Below the pieces are notes generated by a model. That model was not told the origin of the DNA. It did not search any database and saw nothing but the letters and a program-made list of their open reading frames with translations. DNA of 32,000 nucleotides from Candidatus Electrothrix sp. GW3-4 (GTDB lineage: Bacteria; Desulfobacterota; Desulfobulbia; Desulfobulbales; Desulfobulbaceae): assembly GCF_037902255.1 (NCBI RefSeq), contig NZ_CP147990.1:540001-572000 (forward strand), given 5' to 3'. A program made the translations under genes and the position numbers. Within the stretch, counting starts at the first letter, position 1, and each line of letters begins with the position of its first letter. This document shows, one piece after another, positions 1 to 21,977 of the stretch.

Positions 1-439
1 TGACGGAACCCTCCGAGTCCTTGCCATTGCTGCCGCGTTACTTTCCGCCCCGGAGGGCTCTCTTGTTGTTGTGGAAGAAGTTGATAATGGAATCCATCCC
101 AGTCGGGCAAGGCAACTCTTACAAGCAATGCGTGGGCTGGCTGAAAAAAGACAACTGCGTTTGCTGCTGACAACCCATAACCCGGCTCTTATGGACGCCT
201 TACCTGATGAGGCAATAGGAGACGTTGTTTTTTGTTACCGTAACCCGGAAAATGGGTATAGTGAGCTGAAAAAATTGTCTGCTCTGGTCGATTATCCCTC
301 TCTTATCGCACAGGGATCTTTAGGTCATCTTGTCACCAATGGGGTCGTTGAGAGATATGCCAAAAGTGATTGTACTCCTGAACAAAAAAAGGAAAAGGCG
401 TTGGCCTGGCTTGCAGAACTTGATCAGGAGGAAGAATGA
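1..439 (+). CDS. C-terminal part of an ABC/SMC-type AAA ATPase (AAA_15/AAA_21-like); the 5' end lies upstream of the window
   Basis: The frame is open from base 2. Translation reads ..DGTLRVLAIAAALLSAPEGSLVVVEEVDNGIHPSRA.. (tail of ABC signature, Walker B hhhhEE, D-loop) and ..LLLTTHNPALMD.. (H-loop His). Stop is TGA 437-439. GTG 71 in the ORF track is only the first in-window start codon. Confidence 0.8.
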   Translation, partial: DGTLRVLAIAAALLSAPEGSLVVVEEVDNGIHPSRARQLLQAMRGLAEKRQLRLLLTTHNPALMDALPDEAIGDVVFCYRNPENGYSELKKLSALVDYPSLIAQGSLGHLVTNGVVERYAKSDCTPEQKKEKALAWLAELDQEEE

Positions 440-890
440 GTATCTGCATAATAGACACCTCTATTTTTTGCAACATTCTGAAAGCACCTGGGAAAGTCAG
501 GATTATTCATCTATTATGGACTTGATGAAAGAAAAGATTCAAGGCGGTGAGTCATTGCTTTTTCCTATGACCGCTATTATAGAAACAGGGAATCACATTG
601 CGCAAAATGGTGACGGAAGCCAGAAACGCTCCTGTGCTGAAAGATTTATAAAGCAGTTACAGGGGGCTATTGCAGGCGAGGCTCCCTGGACACCGATGAA
701 GCCGTTTGCAATTGAAGAGTTCTTACGTTGGCTGGGTGAATTTCCAGATTACGCGATGAGAGACATTGGGTTCGGCGACCTCTCTATCATCAAAGATTGG
801 GAAGAACTACGAAGAATTCACTCTGGACAGCGAGTATACATCTGGACGCTTGATAATGATTTGAAGGGGTATGATTATCACCCCGGTTAA
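436..890 (+). pseudogene. PIN-domain nuclease-like gene interrupted by a 1-nt frameshift (or sequencing error) near 490-500
   Basis: ATG 436 overlaps the upstream stop (ATGA) and encodes MSICIIDTSIFCNILKAPGK, a typical first PIN acidic motif hhDTShh. That frame stops at 523-525. The -1 frame continues SQDYSSIMDLMKEK..AIIETGNHI..GFGDLSII..IWTLDNDLKGYD* to 890, supplying the remaining E/D/D PIN positions. One extra A in the run at 493-495 would fuse both parts. Confidence 0.55.
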
Positions 891-3629: not shown

Positions 3630-5036
3630 ATGGAAAGAAAATATTACGATTCAGATTTTAAACCGATAAGAAATAAAATTAAAAAATATCAACCTCTTGA
3701 CATTGCGAACATTGCACTTGATGAGCTTAGAAAGAAAGAAGATTGTTGTACTCCTCCACACCCTTGGTTTTTATTCAACATAATTACATGGTCAGTTCAC
3801 TTTGGAAATAAAGATTCTAAGAAGAAAATAGACAAGAAAGAATTTATAAATCTTTACAACATGGTGCAAGACTTTCCAGACGATGAATCTATTATTGAAA
3901 GAATAAAGTTGTCAAAAGATGCACACTCAGTCTGGTGGGCAATAAGAAGTATTTTTCACCAACAAAAATTATATCAATTAAGAAATAACAACATAAATAT
4001 ATTGTTTATTCTAGAACTGTCAAAAACAATCAATCAGGAAGCGGCTAACTTTGTTAAGTTTGTAGTTTTATTGTCGATATCGCTAAGTAAAAATTCAAAT
4101 ATTTTTTATAATAAAAAATATTTTAAAACACTATTTGATAGTCAAGATATAGATAACTATTGGAATATTTTTAATATAACAGAGGATAAGTTAAATGAAA
4201 TAGCAAAGATAAGTAAAGATACATATAAAAATGTTAAATTTGAAAAAAACAGCATGACAATATTTTCTACTCACCCATTATTTATAAATAATCAAGGAAA
4301 TCTTGGGGTAATATGTTATCCTGTTTTTAAGGCGTTTGTACGAAACGGTATATACGATTTATTAATTAAATATGAGATGATAGAAAGGAAAAAAATAGAA
4401 TATGAATTTGAACGTATTATACTAGAATACACAAAACTAGAGTGCATAAAGAAAAGTGAGAATAATTTTATAAGACCTAATTCAGGTGTAGACGGAATAA
4501 TACAAGAAGATGACTTACTGTTTTTTATTGAATGCAAGTCTAGCAGTTTTCATAAACTTTTACCACAGTATCCCACTCAAGAAGCTCATTTTAGTTCACT
4601 AAAACAATCGGTATTAAAAGGTTACAAACAAATGTTGAGTAGCTACAGGAAGTATTCAAAGCAAAAAAAAGCATTTGGAATAATCGTAACCCTGTATGAC
4701 CTAACTATTGGTTGCTCTATAGAATTTTGGAAGCATTCTATTGAAAAATGGATTATGAGTGAAAATCTAAATGAAAAGGAAATAGAATTTCTAAAAAAAT
4801 ATGTATGGGTCATTAATTATACAGAATATATAGAAATACTGCATTCGGCAAAGAATCTCTATGATATTTATAATAAAATCAACAAGGCGTTAAGTGAATT
4901 TTCAAATCATGGGTCTATCTTTCTCGAAGATTATTTTTCCAAAAATTACAGGGTAGAAGATATTAAAATGTTTGGAGATAATATTAATGAAATTGATAAG
5001 CTTCTAGGGATATCTACCTCGATTGAGCGATCTTGA
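3630..5036 (+). CDS. Hypothetical 468-aa protein with a C-terminal restriction-endonuclease-like (Mrr-cat/PD-(D/E)XK) motif, encoded on an AT-rich island
   Basis: Single long ORF in a segment that is visibly far more AT-rich than its flanks. YEFERIILEYTK (about 4398) followed by GVDGIIQEDDLLFFIECKSS (4485-4544, with D 4491 and E-C-K 4530-4538) reproduces the E..D..ExK arrangement of Mrr-like nucleases. The N-terminal 250 aa or so are unrecognised. Confidence 0.6.
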   Translation: MERKYYDSDFKPIRNKIKKYQPLDIANIALDELRKKEDCCTPPHPWFLFNIITWSVHFGNKDSKKKIDKKEFINLYNMVQDFPDDESIIERIKLSKDAHSVWWAIRSIFHQQKLYQLRNNNINILFILELSKTINQEAANFVKFVVLLSISLSKNSNIFYNKKYFKTLFDSQDIDNYWNIFNITEDKLNEIAKISKDTYKNVKFEKNSMTIFSTHPLFINNQGNLGVICYPVFKAFVRNGIYDLLIKYEMIERKKIEYEFERIILEYTKLECIKKSENNFIRPNSGVDGIIQEDDLLFFIECKSSSFHKLLPQYPTQEAHFSSLKQSVLKGYKQMLSSYRKYSKQKKAFGIIVTLYDLTIGCSIEFWKHSIEKWIMSENLNEKEIEFLKKYVWVINYTEYIEILHSAKNLYDIYNKINKALSEFSNHGSIFLEDYFSKNYRVEDIKMFGDNINEIDKLLGISTSIERS

Positions 5037-5148
5037 AAAATACCTCCAGGTCATATTTCACACTACTCAGTAGGGCATAAAGAATACAAAGGCAAAAAAA
5101 ACACAAGTTGGTATCACAGGCCATTTTTGAACCGCGCAACCATCCTGT

Positions 5149-5442
5149 TTCTCGATTCCATCAGGGCAATGCATGCTTACATCACCCCAAAGTCAACCGG
5201 AATCAACACAATGTCAATTTGAATCATCCTATTTCAAACCGGAATCAACCTGATTCCAATCGAAAATGGTTCAATGTCAATTGACATCAGGGCAATTCCT
5301 GTTAACATTGACCCGATTCCAATTGGAATCAAGGCAAAGTGAATTGGAATTGGATCAAAGTCAATCGGAATCAGAGCAATTCCAATTGGAATTACGTCAA
5401 TTCCAGTGTGCATCATCCCGATTCCGGCGTGTTCTGCGCCGG
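5149..5442. repeat. Array of about 12-14 degenerate 21-bp tandem repeats (consensus about WKYCAATYGGAATCANNNCAA) containing three perfect CAATTG-centred palindromes
   Basis: The register is read directly from the sequence, with units starting at 5191, 5212, 5233 ... 5422. GGAAT occurs at 5199, 5241, 5325, 5346, 5367, 5388. ATTCC occurs at 5253, 5295, 5316, 5379, 5400, 5421. All spacings within each set are multiples of 21. Palindromes are ATGTCAATTGACAT 5274-5287, GATTCCAATTGGAATC 5315-5330 and AATTCCAATTGGAATT 5378-5393. Confidence 0.85.
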
Positions 5443-5474
5443 AGGAAATTAATCAACTTTAATCTACGTTAACC

Positions 5475-6899
5475 ATGTGTTTGTGTAAGAGAAAAGGAAA
5501 GTCATCCTCTACCATTATCCATCGTTTCCTCCCCTGTTTCTTCCTTCTCCTCTTCCTCCTGGCCCACGCCTGCTCCGCGACCGCAGAGGAAGGCCTGCCC
5601 GATGCCGAGGAGATCAAGGAAACCTCTGCCGTTATTGAGACGGTCAGCAAAAAGAGTGATGATGCAAAGATCAAGCAGCGGGCCGAGGGCATCTTTGCCG
5701 AGATTCCCGGCCTGGAAAAGGTGGTCGTGACGGTTTCAGAAGGGGTGGTGGTGCTTTCCGGGCCAGTTGCCAACGAGGAGTCAGCCCAACGCGCCCGCCA
5801 TCTGACCAATCGCCTTGCCGGTGTTGTGATCGTGCAGGATCATATTGAGCGCACCCTGAATCTCCAGGAGAATCTCAAGCCCAGGGCTGCCGAGTATGCG
5901 GATAAGGCCAACCGTTTTGTCAAATCCCTGCCTCTCATCCTGACCGCCCTGGGCATTTCCGGGCTGATTCTGCTGGCTGGTTTTCTCCTCGCCCGCTTCT
6001 CCCTGCTCTGGGAGAAGATTACCCCCAATCAGTTTGTTGCAGAGATCCTGGCCCAGATCATCCGCATCGTTGCCATTGGCGGGGCCGTGCTGACCGCCAT
6101 GAATCTGCTGGGCGCAAGCCGGATGATCGGCACCCTGCTGGGCGGGGCCGGGGTAGTGGGTTTTGCCGTGGGTTTTGCCGTCAAAGACACCATTGAGAAC
6201 TATATCGCCAGTATCATGCTCAGTCTCCGCCAGCCCTTTCGCCCCAGGGATTTTGTCTCGATCAATGAGCATCAGGGCGTGGTTATTCGCCTGACCTCCC
6301 GGGCCACTATCCTGATGACGGCGGACGGCAATCATTTACGGATACCGAACGCGGTGGTGTTTAAGGCGACTATTCTTAATTATACTACCAATCCCGAGCG
6401 TCGCTTTGATTTCACCCTGGGGATAGGCGTAAACGATGACCCGGTTGCTGCCACTGAGGCCGGTGTTGAGGCCATCGCCAGCCTGCCCTTTATCCTGGAT
6501 ACCCCCCCGCCGGGTTCCTTTGTTGAAGAGATGGGGGATGCCCATATTGTCCTTCGCTTTATGGGCTGGATCAATCAGAAGGAAACCGACTTTGTCAAGG
6601 CAAGGGGCTATGCCATGCAAAAGGCGAGGGAGGTCCTTGAAGAGCAAGGTTTTTCTCTGCCAGTACCGAGGTATAGCCTCCGTTTTGAGGAGAGCAAAAT
6701 GTTGTTTCCAGAATCAACAGCAAAGCCAACGCCAGAGGCGGAGAAGGAGCAGCTTGTCCGCAGGGAAGATGTTGCATCAGTTGCTGAAATCGATGCAATG
6801 GATGTGAGCCCTGAGCAGCATCTTCAGGAAAAGGTGGAGGACGAGCGCAAGGCCACTCAGGAAGAGGATCTTTTGGATGAGGATAGTCCGAAGGAGTAG
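5475..6899 (+). CDS. Mechanosensitive ion channel (MscS family) with N-terminal signal peptide and BON domain
   Basis: Signal-like FLPCFFLLLFLLAHACSA. BON-like ..KVVVTVSEGVVVLSGPVANEESAQRARHLTNRLAGVVIVQDHI... TM helices followed by the MscS core ..GFAVKDTIENYIASIMLSLRQPFRPRDFVSINEHQGVVIRLTSRATILMTADGNHLRIPNAVV... Confidence 0.85.
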   Translation: MCLCKRKGKSSSTIIHRFLPCFFLLLFLLAHACSATAEEGLPDAEEIKETSAVIETVSKKSDDAKIKQRAEGIFAEIPGLEKVVVTVSEGVVVLSGPVANEESAQRARHLTNRLAGVVIVQDHIERTLNLQENLKPRAAEYADKANRFVKSLPLILTALGISGLILLAGFLLARFSLLWEKITPNQFVAEILAQIIRIVAIGGAVLTAMNLLGASRMIGTLLGGAGVVGFAVGFAVKDTIENYIASIMLSLRQPFRPRDFVSINEHQGVVIRLTSRATILMTADGNHLRIPNAVVFKATILNYTTNPERRFDFTLGIGVNDDPVAATEAGVEAIASLPFILDTPPPGSFVEEMGDAHIVLRFMGWINQKETDFVKARGYAMQKAREVLEEQGFSLPVPRYSLRFEESKMLFPESTAKPTPEAEKEQLVRREDVASVAEIDAMDVSPEQHLQEKVEDERKATQEEDLLDEDSPKE

Positions 6900-6997
6900 A
6901 AGGGGAGAATCGTGAGTCGGGCTGCTTGCGAGCAATGAAAGCGGACAGCGGGACAGCTGATACTGTTCAAGGGAACTAAAAAACAGGAGATCATTTT

Positions 6998-9145
6998 ATG
7001 AGAATCACCATTGCATACAACCTTCGGACAGATGATACAGAAGCAACAGCTGAACTGCTTACTGATGCAGACATAAACAGGATACACGAGGCCATTACCA
7101 GTCTTCATCACTCGGTGACAGTGGTCGAGGTTTCTGGCAAACCCAATGAAGTCATTGAGCGCCTGATTGAAAGCGAACCTGATCTTATTTTTAATCTGGC
7201 AGAAGGAACCATTGGGAGCTCCAGGGAGGCCTTTTATCCGGGACTATACGAGCAAATGGGAATACCGTTTACCGGCGGCAATGCCTCTCTGCTTCATCTT
7301 AATCTTGATAAACATCTTGCCAAGACCGTTCTCTCCAATCACGGCGTCAATGTACCAAAGGGCATCTTGATTACGGGGAGGGATTTTGCCTTGCCCGATG
7401 ATTTGCAGTATCCCTTGATGATTAAACCGAATTCAGAGGGATCAAGTAAGGGAATTACCCAGGATTCAGTCGTTGACACCAGAGATATCGCCCTGACCAG
7501 AATAAACCGTCTGTTAGATCATTATCCTGCTGGCCTTGTTGTTGAAGAATATATCGGAGGCCGGGAGCTCAGTATTCCCTTCCTTGAAAGTTATCCGGGA
7601 AAATTGCTCGACGTCGTTGAACATACCTTTGATCTCAGGAAGATTGGGGGGAAATATAATATCTACGACTATGATATGAAACAGGGCGGAGAAGCCGCTG
7701 AATCAGTCCATGTGGTCTGCCCTGCCAATATCAATGCAGAAGAAGAAAAAGCCGTGACCCAGATGGCGCGGGAAGTTTTTGATATCATGTCCTGTCCTGA
7801 TGTCGGTCGGGTGGATATTCGCTTGCATACAAACGGAACGCCCTATTTTATTGAATTGAACCCTTTGCCGAGTCTTCATCCTGATGCCTCGCTTATGACC
7901 GCTGCCCGGTCGCGCGGACTTGAATTTCGCGATGCCCTGCGTTTGGTGATACGTTCGGCGGCCCGCCGCTATGGTATTCCGCTCAGATCTGCTAAGCAAA
8001 CGAAAAAAGCTGATATTGCCTTTGAAACGCCACGTCCCGGTGCCAGGGAGCTGGGCATGCAAATCGGCTGGATGACTCCCGGAGTACATAATGCAATTAC
8101 AGATGTGAAAGGTGTTCGTGTTGGTCATGTTTCACGATTTGCAGATGATGTTCAGATCCCTGGTCAAACAGAGAAAAGTACTATCCGTACCGGTGTTACG
8201 GCAATTATGCCTGCCGGGCGGGCCTATGCGAATAGAATCGCAGCAGGCGGCTTTATCTTAAATGGCGTCGGTGAAATGGCGGGCTTAACCCAGGTGATTG
8301 AGACCGGTTGGCTGGAAACGCCGATATTGCTCACCAACTCACATTCTGTGGGCCGGGTTCATGCCGGTGTCGTTAACCATATGTTGAAAAAGTATCCGCG
8401 ACTCGGTACAGAGACCGATGTGGTCCTGCCGGTTGTTGGTGAAGCTGACGATTCCTTTTTAAATGATGTCCGGGTGGGAGTTTGTTCGGCCCAGGACGCT
8501 GTAAAGGCGATGGAATCAGCATCCTCGGGTCCGGTGCAACAAGGATCGATAGGCGCTGGCATCGGCATGACAAGTTTTGATTTTGCCGGGGGCATCGGAA
8601 CCTCGTCACGTATTATCACGGTGTCGGAAGGTAAGGCATTTACAGTCGGCGTTCTTGTGCTTTCCAATTTTGGAAAAATGCGCAACCTGACCATTGATGG
8701 AGGTGTTGTCGGCAGAACCCTTGACAGGGAATTTGATCAGGAAGGACGTCGTGCGGTATCAGAAGGTTCAATCATTGTTGTTGTTGCTACAGATATCCCC
8801 CTTATCACCAGTCAGCTAAACCGGGTTGCCAAACGGGCGGCCCTGGGCCTCGGGCGCACGGGTTCCTACGCCGCTGCAACCAGTGGGGAAATTATTCTTG
8901 CTTTCAGTACCGGTAACCGCAAGCCCCGGGTGAATACTTCTAAAAGTAACTTTATCACCTTGAAATTGATCTCAGATAATTACATTGATATGGTGTATGA
9001 AGCTGTCGTCGAGGCCACTGAAGAGGCGGTGATAAATGCCATATTTTGTTCCAATGGAATGAATGGACGTGAACAGCGCTGGTGCCCGCCTGTTCCGCAT
9101 CAACGTATCCTTGAATTATTGAATAAAGGGGAAATAACTTCATGA
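6998..9145 (+). CDS. Fusion protein: N-terminal ATP-grasp D-Ala-D-Ala-ligase-like domain plus C-terminal S58/P1 (DmpA-like) aminopeptidase domain
   Basis: N-terminal half: ..PLMIKPNSEGSSKGI.., ..VVEEYIGGRELSIPF.., ..DIRLHTNGTPYFIELNPLPSL.. (ATP-grasp Mg/ATP motifs). C-terminal half from about residue 350: ..ITDVKGVRVGHV..TGVTAIMP..LLTNSHSVG..VVGEADDSFLND..GAGIGMTSFDFAGGIGTSS..GSIIVVVATDIPL..GRTGSYAAATSGEIILAFSTGN.. (DmpA/S58 fold). Confidence 0.75.
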   Translation: MRITIAYNLRTDDTEATAELLTDADINRIHEAITSLHHSVTVVEVSGKPNEVIERLIESEPDLIFNLAEGTIGSSREAFYPGLYEQMGIPFTGGNASLLHLNLDKHLAKTVLSNHGVNVPKGILITGRDFALPDDLQYPLMIKPNSEGSSKGITQDSVVDTRDIALTRINRLLDHYPAGLVVEEYIGGRELSIPFLESYPGKLLDVVEHTFDLRKIGGKYNIYDYDMKQGGEAAESVHVVCPANINAEEEKAVTQMAREVFDIMSCPDVGRVDIRLHTNGTPYFIELNPLPSLHPDASLMTAARSRGLEFRDALRLVIRSAARRYGIPLRSAKQTKKADIAFETPRPGARELGMQIGWMTPGVHNAITDVKGVRVGHVSRFADDVQIPGQTEKSTIRTGVTAIMPAGRAYANRIAAGGFILNGVGEMAGLTQVIETGWLETPILLTNSHSVGRVHAGVVNHMLKKYPRLGTETDVVLPVVGEADDSFLNDVRVGVCSAQDAVKAMESASSGPVQQGSIGAGIGMTSFDFAGGIGTSSRIITVSEGKAFTVGVLVLSNFGKMRNLTIDGGVVGRTLDREFDQEGRRAVSEGSIIVVVATDIPLITSQLNRVAKRAALGLGRTGSYAAATSGEIILAFSTGNRKPRVNTSKSNFITLKLISDNYIDMVYEAVVEATEEAVINAIFCSNGMNGREQRWCPPVPHQRILELLNKGEITS

Positions 9146-10152
9146 AGGTCATTGAAAAGTATAACGACAGTCTGCATAACCCGTATTGGAAGTATCAGCT
9201 TGGGCCGGAGACATATGAAGTCAAGGATACCCCTCTTCGGGTTGAAGCCATTAAAAAGGCCCTGCGTTCTGATGACCGCTTTGATTTTATAACGGCACAA
9301 CAATTTCCTGAACGCTTTATTGCACGGTTGCATCCGTATCACGATTATATCCTGAATACAGCTTCAGGATTAAAAGATGATGATGAGGAGTTTTATCCTG
9401 ACCTCTTTCCTGGGGAGAACGCAAATCTCAGGAGAAAAGTGGATTCACCGCTTTGGGGCGGCATATGGTGTACAGATGCTGTGACGCCCATAAAAAGAAA
9501 GACATACGAGGTGGCCCGTGCTTCTGCTGAAACCGCGCTGACAGGTGCAGAACTGCTCCGTAAAGGGCTGGAAAAAACAGTCTATGCCTTGTGTCGACCT
9601 TCAGGCCATCACGCCGGGCCCCGTGTCTTTGGCGGGTATTGTTATTTCAATAATGCAGCTGTTGCTGCCGAGTATTTATTGCCGGAAGGGAGAGTTGCTC
9701 TTGTAGATATCGATTATCATCATGGCAATGGAACACAGGAATTTTTCGATGAGGTTAAATCGGTTTTTACTGCTTCGATTCATTGCGATCCTACCAACGA
9801 ATACCCCTATTTCTGGGGCTATGCTGACGAAAAAGGAAAAGGTCAGGCTGCTGGTACCAATCATAATGAACCGTTGCCCAAGGAGACAGGAATAGAACAA
9901 TACAGCGGTGCTGTTGACAGAATACTCAGTAAGATAGAAGAATTCAAACCCTCCTTTTTAATTATTGCTGCTGGTTTTGATACCCATAGAAATGACCCTA
10001 TTGGCGGCTTCAACATTCATACAGAAGACTATATTTCTATAGGCCGTCAGTTTAAGGCCCTGGGGATCCCGACCTTGGTATGTCAGGAAGGCGGGTATAA
10101 TGTTGATGTTCTCGGGCAATGTGTAAAGAATTTTTTATTAGGGTTTATGTGA
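9142..10152 (+). CDS. Histone deacetylase-family amidohydrolase (acetylpolyamine/acetoin-utilisation type)
   Basis: ..RPSGHHAGPRVFGGYCYFNNAAVAA.., ..VALVDIDYHHGNGTQEFF.., ..IIAAGFDTHRNDPIGGF.., ..QEGGYN.. are the HDAC zinc/active-site motifs. ATG 9142 overlaps the upstream stop (ATGA). Confidence 0.85.
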   Translation: MKVIEKYNDSLHNPYWKYQLGPETYEVKDTPLRVEAIKKALRSDDRFDFITAQQFPERFIARLHPYHDYILNTASGLKDDDEEFYPDLFPGENANLRRKVDSPLWGGIWCTDAVTPIKRKTYEVARASAETALTGAELLRKGLEKTVYALCRPSGHHAGPRVFGGYCYFNNAAVAAEYLLPEGRVALVDIDYHHGNGTQEFFDEVKSVFTASIHCDPTNEYPYFWGYADEKGKGQAAGTNHNEPLPKETGIEQYSGAVDRILSKIEEFKPSFLIIAAGFDTHRNDPIGGFNIHTEDYISIGRQFKALGIPTLVCQEGGYNVDVLGQCVKNFLLGFM

Positions 10153-10159
10153 CTCAACA

Positions 10160-10262
10160 TTGATGGCCTGGTAAAAAGTCAGAAAACAGCAATTCGCTAA
10201 CGGCAACTCAACGAGTTACAATGCGATTTTTCGCAAAATTGGACTTTTTACGAAACCATCAA
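10160..10262. repeat. Imperfect 21-bp terminal inverted repeats bracketing about 60 bp (MITE/REP-like intergenic element)
   Basis: TTGATGGCCTGGTAAAAAGTC (10160-10180) versus the reverse complement of GACTTTTTACGAAACCATCAA (10242-10262), which is TTGATGGTTTCGTAAAAAGTC. 17 of 21 positions are identical. It fills almost the entire HDAC-ydcF spacer. Confidence 0.4.
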
Positions 10263-17502: not shown

Positions 17503-17590
17503 GCCGGAGTGGTGAAACTGGTAGACGCACTGGACTCAAAATCCAGCGGGCCTTGCGCCCGTGTCGGTTCGACTCCGACCTCCGGCACCA
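17503..17590 (+). tRNA. tRNA-Leu (anticodon CAA), long variable arm, encoded CCA
   Basis: Acceptor GCCGGAG/CTCCGGC. Anticodon stem CTGGA/TCCAG with loop CTCAAAA (anticodon CAA). Long variable arm CGGGCCTTGCGCCCGTG. T-arm TCGGTTCGACTCCGA. Ends ACCA. Confidence 0.95.
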
Positions 17591-20855: not shown

Positions 20856-21015
20856 GGTGTTTCCCTTTTGTTGCGATTGGACTTGGCATTTTTGCTCGTC
20901 AAAGACAGTGCCCGGTGTTGAAACACCGGGCTATTTTCGGCAGTCCCTCTGGGACGCTGTTGCCCGGACATCCCGCCCCCAGAGGGGCAACTGAACATAG
21001 CCCACCGTTGACGCA

Positions 21016-21743: not shown

Positions 21744-21884
21744 ATTGCACAGTTCCCGGAGCCGCAGCCTTGAAGCCTGCTTTCTCCTGGAAATTGCGGC
21801 ATGGATGCTTTACATATCGGGCTGTCTGTTTGAAAAAAAGGGCACTCACTTTCTTAAAGTATGCGATCAGTTTTAAAAAGTAAG

Positions 21885-21907
21885 GCCTCTCTTTTAAAAA
21901 GAGAGGC
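21885..21907 (-). terminator. Perfect 23-bp palindrome, probable terminator of hsdM-rhuM-hsdS
   Basis: GCCTCTCTTTT-A-AAAAGAGAGGC lies about 70 nt downstream of the hsdS stop (minus-strand sense). A/T runs on both sides allow bidirectional action. Confidence 0.5.
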
Positions 21908-21977
21908 ATCAGTTTTAAAGACTGAGCGCTCTATTTTTCAGTTCTCCCTGTTGTACGCAGCAAGCGTCGATGACATA

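Follow-up and report, generated by a model that had tools for sequence, protein, structure and literature searches.

Dispersed arrays of phased 21-bp palindromes in cable bacteria and their possible role as regulatory binding tracks

An intergenic array of 21-bp palindromic units from the cable bacterium Candidatus Electrothrix is one copy of a dispersed, multi-copy family of cis-elements in Ca. Electrothrix and Ca. Electronema. The array is under strong purifying selection, with orthologous copies being far better conserved than their flanks and synonymous sites. We tentatively read it as a cis-regulatory set of putative dimer-binding sites arranged on one helix face next to promoters, an interpretation which we consider a serious candidate though still short of probable. 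Cable bacteria cannot be cultivated in pure culture and, to our knowledge, nothing is known about gene regulation in them. All coordinates refer to the stretch of DNA that was analysed, 32,000 nucleotides in length and termed the window.

Architecture of the array

Positions 5149-5442 can be written as 14 head-to-tail rows of exactly 21 bp without a single indel (13-14 units). The well-defined part spans 5170-5442 and comprises 12 units and a terminal unit with a G+C-rich inverted repeat (Table 1). Identity of the array to itself was 0.57, 0.52, 0.49 and 0.51 at lags of 21, 42, 63 and 84, respectively, compared with a background of ca. 0.15-0.35. When the sequence was shuffled 2000 times, the highest identity over lags 5 to 59 had a mean of 0.318 ± 0.013 and never exceeded 0.378, in support of the head-to-tail 21-bp array that a preliminary description of this DNA had proposed. 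No second 294-nt stretch came near the array value within the 32-kb window and a PWM built from the array units found no further unit clusters there. Because the units are only ca. 57% alike, Tandem Repeats Finder reports 3.1 copies only (5187-5250) instead of 13 units. A second 21-bp match of this program (21856-21919) consists of unrelated terminator-like hairpins and was rejected.

The consensus unit consists of a 14-bp palindrome, ATTCC-N4-GGAAT, and a 7-bp spacer with the pattern Y-R-nnn-Y-R. Unit composition is symmetric, and the spacer is present in both orientations. The preliminary description had reported six GGAAT and six ATTCC pentamers in phase. All six GGAAT do share one phase; for ATTCC the count has to be corrected to seven, six of which share a phase. 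The three perfect palindromes, with centres 42 and 63 bp apart, and the two flanking ORFs had been placed correctly. Since the 21-bp spacing of the palindromes corresponds to exactly two helical turns, all sites lie on the same face of the helix, and the earlier geometric argument to this effect stands. A wedge-model curvature prediction did not find the arrays to be curved above shuffles: ratios of end-to-end to contour length were 0.87-0.96 for six arrays and ca. 0.88-0.92 for shuffles, with a phased A-tract control at 0.30. An array of GANTC or CAATTG methylation sites was also considered and rejected; these sites are not conserved because unit position 14 is C or T at a ratio of ca. 50:50.

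Table 1. Features of the array locus in the window.
Feature	Position	Strand	Remarks
AT-rich ORF	3630-5036		sub-threshold GapS1 antiphage-family match
Conserved upstream box (TT)GGTATCAC-N11-12-GA(A)CCGCGCAAC	5108-5140	+	aligned with L005, L213, L209
Degenerate leading 21-bp unit TTCTCGATTCCATCAGGGCAA	5149-5169	.	21-bp layout; PWM 12.5 bits; ortholog alignment
Core array, twelve 21-bp units in unbroken register	5170-5421	.	consensus TTCCAATTGGAATCAnnnCAA
End units of the core array, family-specific			first CATCACCCCAA, last TTCCAGTGTGCATCA
Perfect 14-bp palindrome ATGTCAATTGACAT	5274-5287	.	TGTC/GACA variant of core
Perfect 16-bp palindrome GATTCCAATTGGAATC	5315-5330	.	
Perfect 16-bp palindrome AATTCCAATTGGAATT	5378-5393	.	
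Sigma-70-like promoter match	5281-5308	+	TTGACA, 16 nt, TAACAT; TG before -10
Terminal unit TTCCGGCGTGTTCTGCGCCGG	5422-5442	.	G+C-rich inverted repeat at 5424-5442
Last stretch homologous to relatives' 3' tail, AGGAAATTAATCAACT	5443-5458	+	
BON-MscS channel gene	5475-6899	+	gene towards which the array points here

Dispersal and conservation

Four relatives (L005, L209, L213 and L215) carry the orthologous array at the same locus, and all of them do so without the GapS1-like gene. The comparison with relatives devoid of the AT-rich ORF thus came out in favor of an independent array and refutes the earlier suggestion that it belongs to an adjacent foreign island. The L005 copy is 95-96% identical to window positions 5177-5458 and has sharp ends, while the leading unit at 5149 is shared with L209 and missing from L005 and L213. 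Paralogous, colinear arrays of 11-19 units, ca. 70% identical to one another, are found at other loci in Electrothrix and Electronema (L207, L208, L210, L211 and L214). At least two copies exist per genome, as seen for L208 and L210, both from Electronema sp. PJ, and for the window copy and L214 from one sample, which also yielded L001, 100% identical to the window. L208 and L210 share their flanks in addition to the array, and L207 contains two inverted copies within 5 kb which flank a 4.2-kb gene. Literature searches on the motif, on repeats of 21 bp and on cable-bacterial repeats yielded nothing relevant; the catalogue in the paper on closed cable-bacteria genomes is restricted to repeats above 250 bp in length and 99% in identity, most of which are IS elements (PMC10926707).

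The array is 97% and 89% identical in genome pairs whose adjoining 5' flanks and 3' tails reach only 72-76% and 78-80%, respectively. Between the window and L005, the array diverges by 3.7%, compared with a pS of 0.30 and a dS of 0.38 for mscS. Every indel between array copies measures 21, 42 or 84 bp, so that the register is always kept. Changes per position amount to 1.5 in the core and 2.6 in the spacer, with positions 12, 13, 15 and 21 being invariant. The two half-sites of a palindrome vary independently: covariation of palindrome partners within units is absent and pairing is no more common than shuffles predict, with five pairs at z-scores of -0.6 to +1.1 and pair 5-8 below expectation (z -3.4). 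Both strands of the array look alike. Judged from these alignments, the pattern would fit a binding site better than a hairpin or a gene. Independent half-sites, whole-turn spacing and a core more constrained than the spacer are the properties expected of an operator array, and the 5-N4-5 geometry of the palindrome matches known dimer operators. A point against this reading is that spacers and unit-specific deviations are conserved between species beyond the needs of simple operator arrays.

A dispersed family may also represent a selfish or neutral minisatellite of the BOX, MIRU or REP/BIME type without a function of its own, spread by ectopic recombination or some transposase, in which case proximity to promoters and junctions would be a by-product. 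BOX elements are pneumococcal and follow the arrangement boxA-boxBn-boxC, MIRU are mycobacterial and REP/BIME enterobacterial. Like these elements, which are often oriented with genes, the array is multi-copy and intergenic, has distinct end modules and varies in its number of internal tandem units. The flanks shared by L208 and L210, the inverted pair in L207 and a short-read contig break within the array would suit such a repeat, as would the location of copies beside rearrangement breakpoints, in a slot for variable defence genes and near an IS3-family element. However, the known families are defined by stem-loops or small coupled ORFs, and the array shows neither covariation, pairing beyond composition nor a conserved ORF. 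Its orthologous copies are also much better conserved than adjoining non-coding DNA and synonymous sites, and the register is perfect despite units being only ca. 57% alike. At the loci examined, neither terminal inverted repeats nor target duplications nor an associated transposase were found, and the ca. 70% identity among paralogs argues against a recent burst of copying. A MITE was rejected as no terminal inverted repeats exist beyond the unit motif. The preliminary description had named scattering of the unit throughout the genome with no positional association as grounds for abandoning a specific role. Dispersal is indeed what we observe, while positional association holds for most copies, which precede a gene in its own orientation and carry a conserved promoter-like tail. 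Overall, we consider a functionless dispersed repeat unlikely.

RNA and protein-coding alternatives

The array could alternatively act at the RNA level, either as a non-coding RNA or as a long 5' leader binding many copies of an RNA-binding protein, with the 21-nt repeats (GGAAU/AUUCC motifs or small hairpins) serving as a sponge or attenuator and the asymmetric end units defining the transcript. The polarity of the array, its specific first and last units and the tail are compatible with this idea, as is the conservation of nearly all array positions between species, and the array would be part of the mscS 5' UTR if transcription in the window starts at 5281-5308. Predicted folds of either strand outperform those of shuffles (z -4.2 and -4.5). 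A consensus fold of eight copies yielded 90.9% paired cells compared with 86.9% for shuffles, and 16 pairs with double changes compared with 10.5, although these double changes represent roughly one event because four of the eight rows are orthologs. Covariation terms are small for both strands, the term of RNAalifold contributing only -1.9 of -41 kcal/mol, and the reverse strand gives an equivalent pseudo-structure of 70 pairs, 14 of them with double changes. A structured RNA should match a curated family or show strand-specific covariation. Rfam searches at gathering thresholds and by E-value returned no matches to the array, even with permissive settings, where only generic hairpin noise was seen; palindrome partners lack covariation within units and mismatch types are strand-symmetric. 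An intrinsic terminator is also absent, since the terminal inverted repeat is not followed by a T-run. Taken together, we regard a function as RNA as improbable. A CsrB/Rsm-like GGA sponge was rejected specifically, as GGA motifs would be located in stems, the strands are symmetric and Rfam matches are lacking.

Further, 21 bp correspond to seven codons, and the unbroken register might reflect a real or decayed coding heptad repeat, since ATT CCn nnn GGA ATy reads I-P-x-G-I-x-x on both strands. Gene callers have placed ORFs on such arrays ca. 30 times, genuine secreted proteins with AVPVGxx heptads exist (e.g. P0007 and P0026), and variability among units is somewhat higher at positions 2, 5, 8, 11, 14, 17 and 20. 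Yet all six frames of the window array contain stops, and the open frame and its strand differ from copy to copy. Substitutions among the four orthologs are distributed 14/13/12 over the codon phases, and the 3.7% divergence of the array is difficult to reconcile with a coding repeat, in which roughly one position in three should be free to vary, given the mscS pS. Gly is always encoded by GGA and Ile by ATY, no Pfam family covers the array ORFs and the tails of these ORFs resemble junk. A coding heptad repeat, and with it the translation as a conserved protein which the preliminary description had raised as a possible objection, has hardly any credibility in our view.

Gene context and promoters

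At ca. 7 of 9 independent loci the array points in the same direction as a gene located 25-400 nt downstream, a proportion that is not statistically significant. These genes are mscS, an fn3 gene, genes for a PPDK-like enzyme, PFOR and ClC, a 73-aa/TerC locus and an fn3 homolog (L215); as a point against a link to promoters, the L207A copy faces the 3' end of a gene. No DNA-binding gene was found to recur beside arrays among the related loci. Copies adjoin rearrangement breakpoints, a slot used by variable defence genes and an IS3-family element.

A conserved tail containing GCTGTATATTT follows the array within ±1 bp of its register in L005, L213, L209, L215, L208, L210, L214 and L207B. In relatives this tail consists of a -10-like TATATT unit, a leader and a Shine-Dalgarno site, all assigned by resemblance to consensus. 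The terminal-unit sequence GGCGTG(C/T)TCTGC is conserved in most array copies. A sigma-54 promoter in the upstream box or the tail was rejected as the GG/GC spacing, compared with the consensus by eye, does not fit.

The window deviates from this arrangement at both ends. Between the upstream box and the array, relatives have ca. 190 bp of additional conserved intergenic DNA which is deleted in the window. Past 5458, where relatives carry the TATATT unit, leader and Shine-Dalgarno site, the window lacks the conserved tail, and a diverged remnant of the tail region overlaps the mscS start codon. The first ca. 100 nt of mscS, encoding the signal peptide, have no homolog in relatives and therefore mark a rearrangement junction. 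A promoter scan here returned only two promoter-like sites compared with 1.2 expected. The sigma-70-like match at 5281-5308 may replace a native promoter lost by rearrangement; the A at 5304 within it is specific to the window, the three orthologs having G. The earlier proposal that the array controls the channel gene would apply to the window at best, since the array of relatives precedes fn3-domain or other genes. Four Electrothrix mscS loci are without an array and only L005 has one, for which reason we dropped the link to mscS and the use of mscS loci as a test bed.

Binding-site model and comparison with known systems

Based on the results above, the best support still goes to the preliminary option of a cooperative regulator or nucleoid-protein array, in agreement with the phased palindromes and with indels in multiples of 21 bp. 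Each copy measures 230-400 bp, is predicted to be straight and contains 11-19 of the degenerate 14-bp palindromes, 21 bp apart. It is followed by an asymmetric tail which comprises a -10-like TATATT, ca. 70 nt of leader and a ribosome-binding site. We infer that the ligand is a dimeric DNA-binding protein which would occupy each palindrome, with neighboring dimers touching across the 7-bp spacers to form a continuous protein track from ca. -40 to -330 relative to the adjacent promoter. Such a track could set promoter activity, either through repression by occlusion or through recruitment of RNA polymerase. In the window, the native tail was lost through a rearrangement that joined the array to mscS, and transcription may now start at the promoter-like site inside the array.

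Several tandem operators resemble this arrangement. ArgR binds ARG boxes of 18 bp separated by 3 bp, giving a 21-bp period, GlpR uses tandem 20-bp operators and the CI repressor of phage 186 forms a wheel of dimers. Like the array, these operators place palindromes every two helical turns on one face beside a promoter, and cooperative occupancy is the expected mode for them as well as for our model. However, they comprise 2-4 sites, or up to ca. 7 in the case of 186 CI, compared with 11-19 in the arrays; ATTCC-N4-GGAAT matches none of their motifs, and the whole array, unlike these operators, is a dispersed and colinearly conserved module. We know of no characterized bacterial regulator with anything approaching 12-19 tandem operators.

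Longer series of sites are known from partition centromeres. In F-plasmid sopC, SopB binds a 16-bp palindrome in each of 12 units of 43 bp. Both sopC and ParR/parC share with the array at least 10 tandem units, spacing by integral helical turns and a palindromic core, and their design supports a protein filament, as is proposed for the array. Tandem sites of 21-22 bp are also typical of iterons, and the array might thus be an origin or a sopC/parC-type centromere of a plasmid or phage, with the AT-rich tail adjoining it in relatives as an unwinding element. The phage contig L205 offers a parallel: it carries six in-frame TTCC-N4-GGAA repeats with a 21-bp (7-codon) spacing in an ORF directly upstream of a DnaC-like loader, with an AT-rich region alongside, which corresponds to the lambda ori-in-O arrangement. 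In contrast to these six near-identical units, the 13 units in the window are diverged and non-coding and have no replication genes with them. Pfam, NCBIfam and PADLOC scans of its neighborhood identified MFS, GapS1-like and BON-MscS genes, in line with the earlier statement that no rep or par gene is nearby. Iterons are accompanied by an initiator gene and consist of near-identical direct repeats with an AT-rich region on a plasmid or phage, whereas arrays consist of 12-19 degenerate palindromes, no initiator was found at the window or at ca. 10 related loci, the contexts are chromosomal and the AT-rich tail is lost in the window. Likewise, a partition centromere forms one cluster per replicon beside a parA/parB, parM/parR or tubZ/tubR operon, while the arrays occur several times per chromosome in housekeeping intergenic contexts, with units much more degenerate than in sopC/parC and without par genes at any locus. 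Different genera have retained them at orthologous loci. None of the copies adjoins a rep, par, integrase or phage gene, and a BLAST comparison with 72,556 plasmids and 50,697 phages gave no match. The iteron and centromere options of the preliminary description are thus unsupported, and we consider an origin or centromere very unlikely.

A bolder extension of the dimer-binding model, which we put forward as speculative and rather doubtful, is that the arrays are the DNA half of an undescribed chromatin-like or regulatory system, in which a candidate protein polymerizes on 250-400-bp tracks of ATTCC-N4-GGAAT palindromes phased at 21 bp and thereby controls a set of promoters in cable bacteria.

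Significance and look-alike arrays

The array recurs in multiple conserved copies, on which selection acts about as strongly as on protein sequence, and it precedes genes for ion channels (MscS, ClC and TerC) and central metabolism (PFOR and a PPDK-like enzyme). Used as bait, it provides a handle with which to fish out the putative binding protein and define its regulon. Standard repeat finders and annotation miss long arrays whose sites are diverged yet perfectly phased, and gene callers mis-call them as 'IPIGI' hypothetical proteins. Even a neutral dispersed repeat would be worth flagging as a source of spurious ORFs and short-read assembly breaks.

A metagenome scan for four GGAAT at 21-bp spacing returned at least 120 loci, most of which are coding repeats or chance matches. 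We set aside L193 (PPGGIPP coding) as well as L135 and L180 (near-identical satellite, possibly eukaryotic) and left out L203, a low-coverage and probably chimeric contig; P0042 was not found on any contig. Arrays of the same architecture were found in unrelated lineages, in other phyla, namely L176, L160 and L196 (33% G+C). If these belong with the cable-bacteria arrays, the system or a convergent counterpart would be widespread, and it would have been overlooked because its units are too diverged for repeat finders. L160 and L176 are located between convergent genes, and the LysRS neighbor of L176 best matches named Verrucomicrobiota proteins at ca. 62-64% identity.

Results and discussion

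The DNA between the AT-rich GapS1-like ORF and mscS carries a head-to-tail repeat of 14 rows of exactly 21 bp without indel (consensus unit TTCCAATTGGAATCAnnnCAA). Array self-identity was 0.57, 0.52, 0.49 and 0.51 at lags of 21, 42, 63 and 84, whereas in 2000 shuffles the highest value over lags 5-59 was 0.318 ± 0.013 (maximum 0.378), and comparable 21-bp periodicity was found nowhere else in the window. The clear array spans 5170-5442, the unit at 5149 being degenerate. These results confirm the repeat given in the preliminary description, its three perfect palindromes with centres 42 and 63 bp apart and its six GGAAT pentamers, all in one phase; of ATTCC pentamers there are seven, not six, with six in phase. 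The divergence of the units limited TRF to 3.1 copies. Elsewhere in the window, at 21856-21919, TRF gave another hit of period 21; it was rejected as a relative, since it consists of unrelated, terminator-like A/T-flanked hairpins (aaagtaaggcctctcttttaaaaagagaggc) between convergent genes. Two Logan short-read contigs, L001 (window 5369-10185) and L002, are 100% identical to the window and both end inside the array (start at window 5369); k-mer assemblies are broken by the array or by strain variation within it.

The array belongs to a multi-copy, conserved and apparently undescribed family of cable bacteria; a literature search found no description of these arrays. Spurious ORFs called on arrays, both strands of which translate as I-P-I-G-I-x-x, served as a census proxy. 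A profile of window-derived peptides, searched against 1.8 billion representatives, retrieved 64 proteins. Of these proteins, about 30 are plainly array translations. A second peptide search gave 34 clusters, in which no organism was named apart from Ca. Electronema sp. PJ, Ca. Electrothrix aestuarii, E. sp. LOE2 and E. sp. AU1_5. On the corresponding contigs (L-numbers), the arrays comprise 11-19 units and occupy chromosomal sites unrelated to each other. Eight copies align colinearly with characteristic units in a common order, first CATCnCCCCAA, then TTCCAATCGAAAATGG, TGTCAATTG, TTCCTGTTGACATTGA and last TTCCAGTGTGCATCA, and all indels among them measure 21 or 42 bp. L209 lacks exactly one unit, and in L208 an internal stretch of 84 bp is duplicated compared with L210. 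L214, whose reverse transcriptase-protease fusion may be a defence RT, shares run SRR28154588 with L001, and the window's genome therefore very probably contains at least two array copies. The inverted L207 arrays around a single gene resemble the ends of a composite element. In a metagenome copy (L204:232-440), five 42-bp repeats (GACAATTCAGTTGTGAATTTGCTTTCCGAGTTGTGGATAGA), which have an inverted motif of their own, come after the 21-bp array, and L204:1050-1150 is a run of TGTTGAT heptamer repeats. The IPIGI profile also pulled in P0007 and P0026, genuine-looking secreted proteins with long AVPVGxx or SxPVGxx heptads; they are unrelated to the arrays and are examples of such heptads in real proteins.

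Coordinates and context of arrays, neighbouring genes and other features
Contig	Position	Feature	Context
Window	330-890	ORF	PADLOC candidate defence protein PDC-M07B, 2.5e-43
Window	3630-5036	AT-rich ORF, 468 aa, GapS1-like	just 5' of array; 25-32% G+C in ~50% G+C genome
Window	5149-5442	array	
Window	17503-17587	tRNA	
Window	20911-20956	Rfam Acido-Lenti-1 sRNA	37.8 bits, barely over gathering score 37
L209	6745-8031	PIN_8 gene	just 5' of array, fn3/mscS locus
L215	2591-3685	HSDR_N_2 gene	just 5' of array, fn3/mscS locus
L207	1428-1700, 6113-6385	arrays, inverted pair	flank one 1415-aa PPDK_N/PEP-utilizer gene
L208		array	upstream of PFOR
L210		array	between trkH and ClC channel gene
L211		array	between glmS and 73-aa gene + terC
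L214	3785-6969 region	array	between IS3-family element (orfA + rve) and reverse transcriptase/trypsin-like protease fusion gene
L160	3300-3560	array	between convergent genes
L176	1740-1975	array	between convergent genes
L196	1620-1850	array	divergent intergenic region; 33% G+C
L180	400-672	array, ATTCC-N4-GGAAT cores	near-identical satellite in an unrelated metagenome contig

The gene 3' of the array encodes a BON-MscS channel whose closest relatives (80-86% amino-acid identity) come from Candidatus Electrothrix and other Desulfobulbaceae assemblies, which identifies the source of the window as a cable bacterium. The preliminary description proposed a comparison with mscS loci lacking the AT-rich ORF. 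The Desulfobulbaceae MAG whose mscS is closest, L005, has an array at 393-674 that matches window 5177-5458 at 95% identity; over 5180-5450 the two differ at 10 of 271 bp. Homology stops abruptly on either side, array and mscS are separated by an fn3-domain gene, and this locus has no GapS1-like gene. The orthologous locus with array also occurs in L213 (Electrothrix sp. LOE2), L209 (E. sp. AU1_5) and L215. The gene lying 5' of the array differs between the window, L209 and L215, and the array therefore adjoins the foreign gene and is not part of it, contrary to the earlier suggestion that it could belong to a foreign island. This position acts as a variable slot for defence-type genes, with the array as its border. 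The window's ORF in this slot was probably acquired horizontally as a single-gene defence system; it matches the NCBIfam GapS1 antiphage family below threshold (7.6e-24, 84 bits; cutoff 320 bits) and nothing in Pfam or PADLOC.

The array is absent from four Electrothrix mscS loci (L003, L004, L006 and L007), in which a homolog of window gene 917-1513 abuts mscS; the ~4-kb stretch between both genes in the window is therefore rearranged. The PDC-M07B-type ORF and a partial ORF ahead of it, which looks like its ATPase partner, lie at window 1-890; the pair is kept upstream of the 198-aa gene in L003 and L004. The mscS 5' end is rebuilt by rearrangement. Its first ~100 nt (window 5475-5573; signal peptide MCLCKRKGKSSST...) are unique, with no homolog in any relative, and coincide in part with what is left, in diverged form, of the promoter and leader seen in relatives; the ATG has no Shine-Dalgarno site ahead of it.

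Between the window and L005, mscS has a pS of 0.30 and a dS of 0.38, and 3.7% of array sites differ. For a cleaner control, array and flanks were compared at one locus within each genome pair: array identity is 97% between L005 and L213 and 89% between either and L209, compared with 76% and 72-76% for the adjoining 5' intergenic flank and 80% and 78-79% for the 3' tail. The array evolves several-fold slower than neighbouring non-coding DNA, which is evidence against a neutral repeat. In its genomic organisation the family is similar to modular dispersed repeats of the BOX, MIRU and BIME types. It has neither the stem-loop nor the coupled-ORF logic of those repeats, and the constraint on it is much stronger; we regard a functionless dispersed repeat as unlikely. 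Changes per position amount to 1.5 in the palindromic core (unit positions 21, 1-13) versus 2.6 in the spacer (14-20), and positions 12, 13, 15 and 21 show none.

A coding relic is extremely improbable: all six frames of the window array contain stops, the open frame and strand vary from copy to copy, four orthologs together have 39 variable columns, spread 14/13/12 over the three phases, and no Pfam family matched array translations. Both array strands fold better than shuffles, to an equal degree, and in RNAalifold the consensus folds of the two strands were comparable and their covariation terms small. The modest excess of the plus-strand consensus fold over shuffles arises largely because the four orthologs are split from the other rows, approximately one event. 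Rfam gave no match to the array, and an RNA leader or sponge seems to us a doubtful explanation. Across 90 non-redundant units, palindrome partners pair no more commonly than column composition predicts (five pairs, z -0.6 to +1.1), and pair 5-8 pairs more rarely than expected (z -3.4). Mismatch types are strand-symmetric, the strongest dependencies link adjacent positions, and the spacer is found in both orientations (GGG-CAA or CCC-GA). A curvature prediction, likewise proposed earlier, yielded straight arrays in an approximate wedge-model estimate. With coding, RNA or cruciform pairing and curvature set aside, phased palindromic half-sites remain. Independently varying half-sites, a 14-bp palindrome, 5-N4-5 geometry and strict helical register are the signature expected of a dimeric DNA-binding protein.

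The single unit is symmetric and the whole element asymmetric. The last units are followed by TTCCAGTGTGCATCAnnCCGn and TTCCGGCGTGCTCTGCnnCAG and then by an AT-rich unit, nAAAAGCTGTATATTTnTT, within ±1 bp of array register; at the fn3 loci a ~70-nt leader, GGAGG and ATG come next. Recognisable tail versions also occur in L208, L210, L214 and L207B, and TATATT in the tail may, by its consensus, be a -10 element. At about seven of nine independent loci, array and downstream gene have the same orientation and lie 25-400 nt apart; L207A is the exception. The window retains the tail only to 5458, and the region around its mscS ATG is a diverged remnant of the TATATT unit. The one promoter-like site (TTGACA, 16 nt, TAACAT at 5281-5308) lies inside the array, and its -10 requires an A at 5304 that is specific to the window.

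For the arrays of cable bacteria we predict a regulatory function as follows. Dimers would occupy each palindrome, neighbouring dimers would touch across the 7-bp spacers, and together they would line a single face of straight DNA for ~250-400 bp beside a promoter, forming a protein track that would repress or activate the adjacent gene. We favour this mechanism tentatively, at somewhat under an even chance, and assign part of the probability to none of the explanations considered; no recurrent DNA-binding gene was found near the arrays. The geometry and the cooperative protein array put forward in the preliminary description are retained, while its iteron, centromere and island-cargo options are dropped. 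Tandem operator arrays (ARG boxes, GlpR operators, 186 CI) are similarly arranged but have far fewer sites. The sopC/parC tracks are also alike in arrangement, but par and rep genes are absent here, and an origin- or centromere-like role is very unlikely.

Plasmid and phage records held nothing similar to the array. On a phage contig, L205:257-382 comprises six near-identical 21-bp repeats (TTCCTGTAGGAAACGCACCCC; TTCC-N4-GGAA) in frame inside a 244-aa ORF (translation GAPLPVGN), directly upstream of a DnaC-like helicase loader. This is a probable lambda-style origin inside an initiator gene, with the same motif geometry as the window array but a quite different context. A metagenome scan for which GGAAT was a requirement, so that independent information comes only from the ATTCC partner and the N4 spacing, listed among its matches intergenic (A/T)TTCC-N4-GGAAT-N7 arrays of 10-13 diverged units in 21-bp register from other lineages. 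The L160, L176 and L196 arrays share the cable-bacteria architecture and are candidates for the same class. The LysRS neighbour in L176 has Verrucomicrobiota proteins as its best named matches (~62-64% identity).
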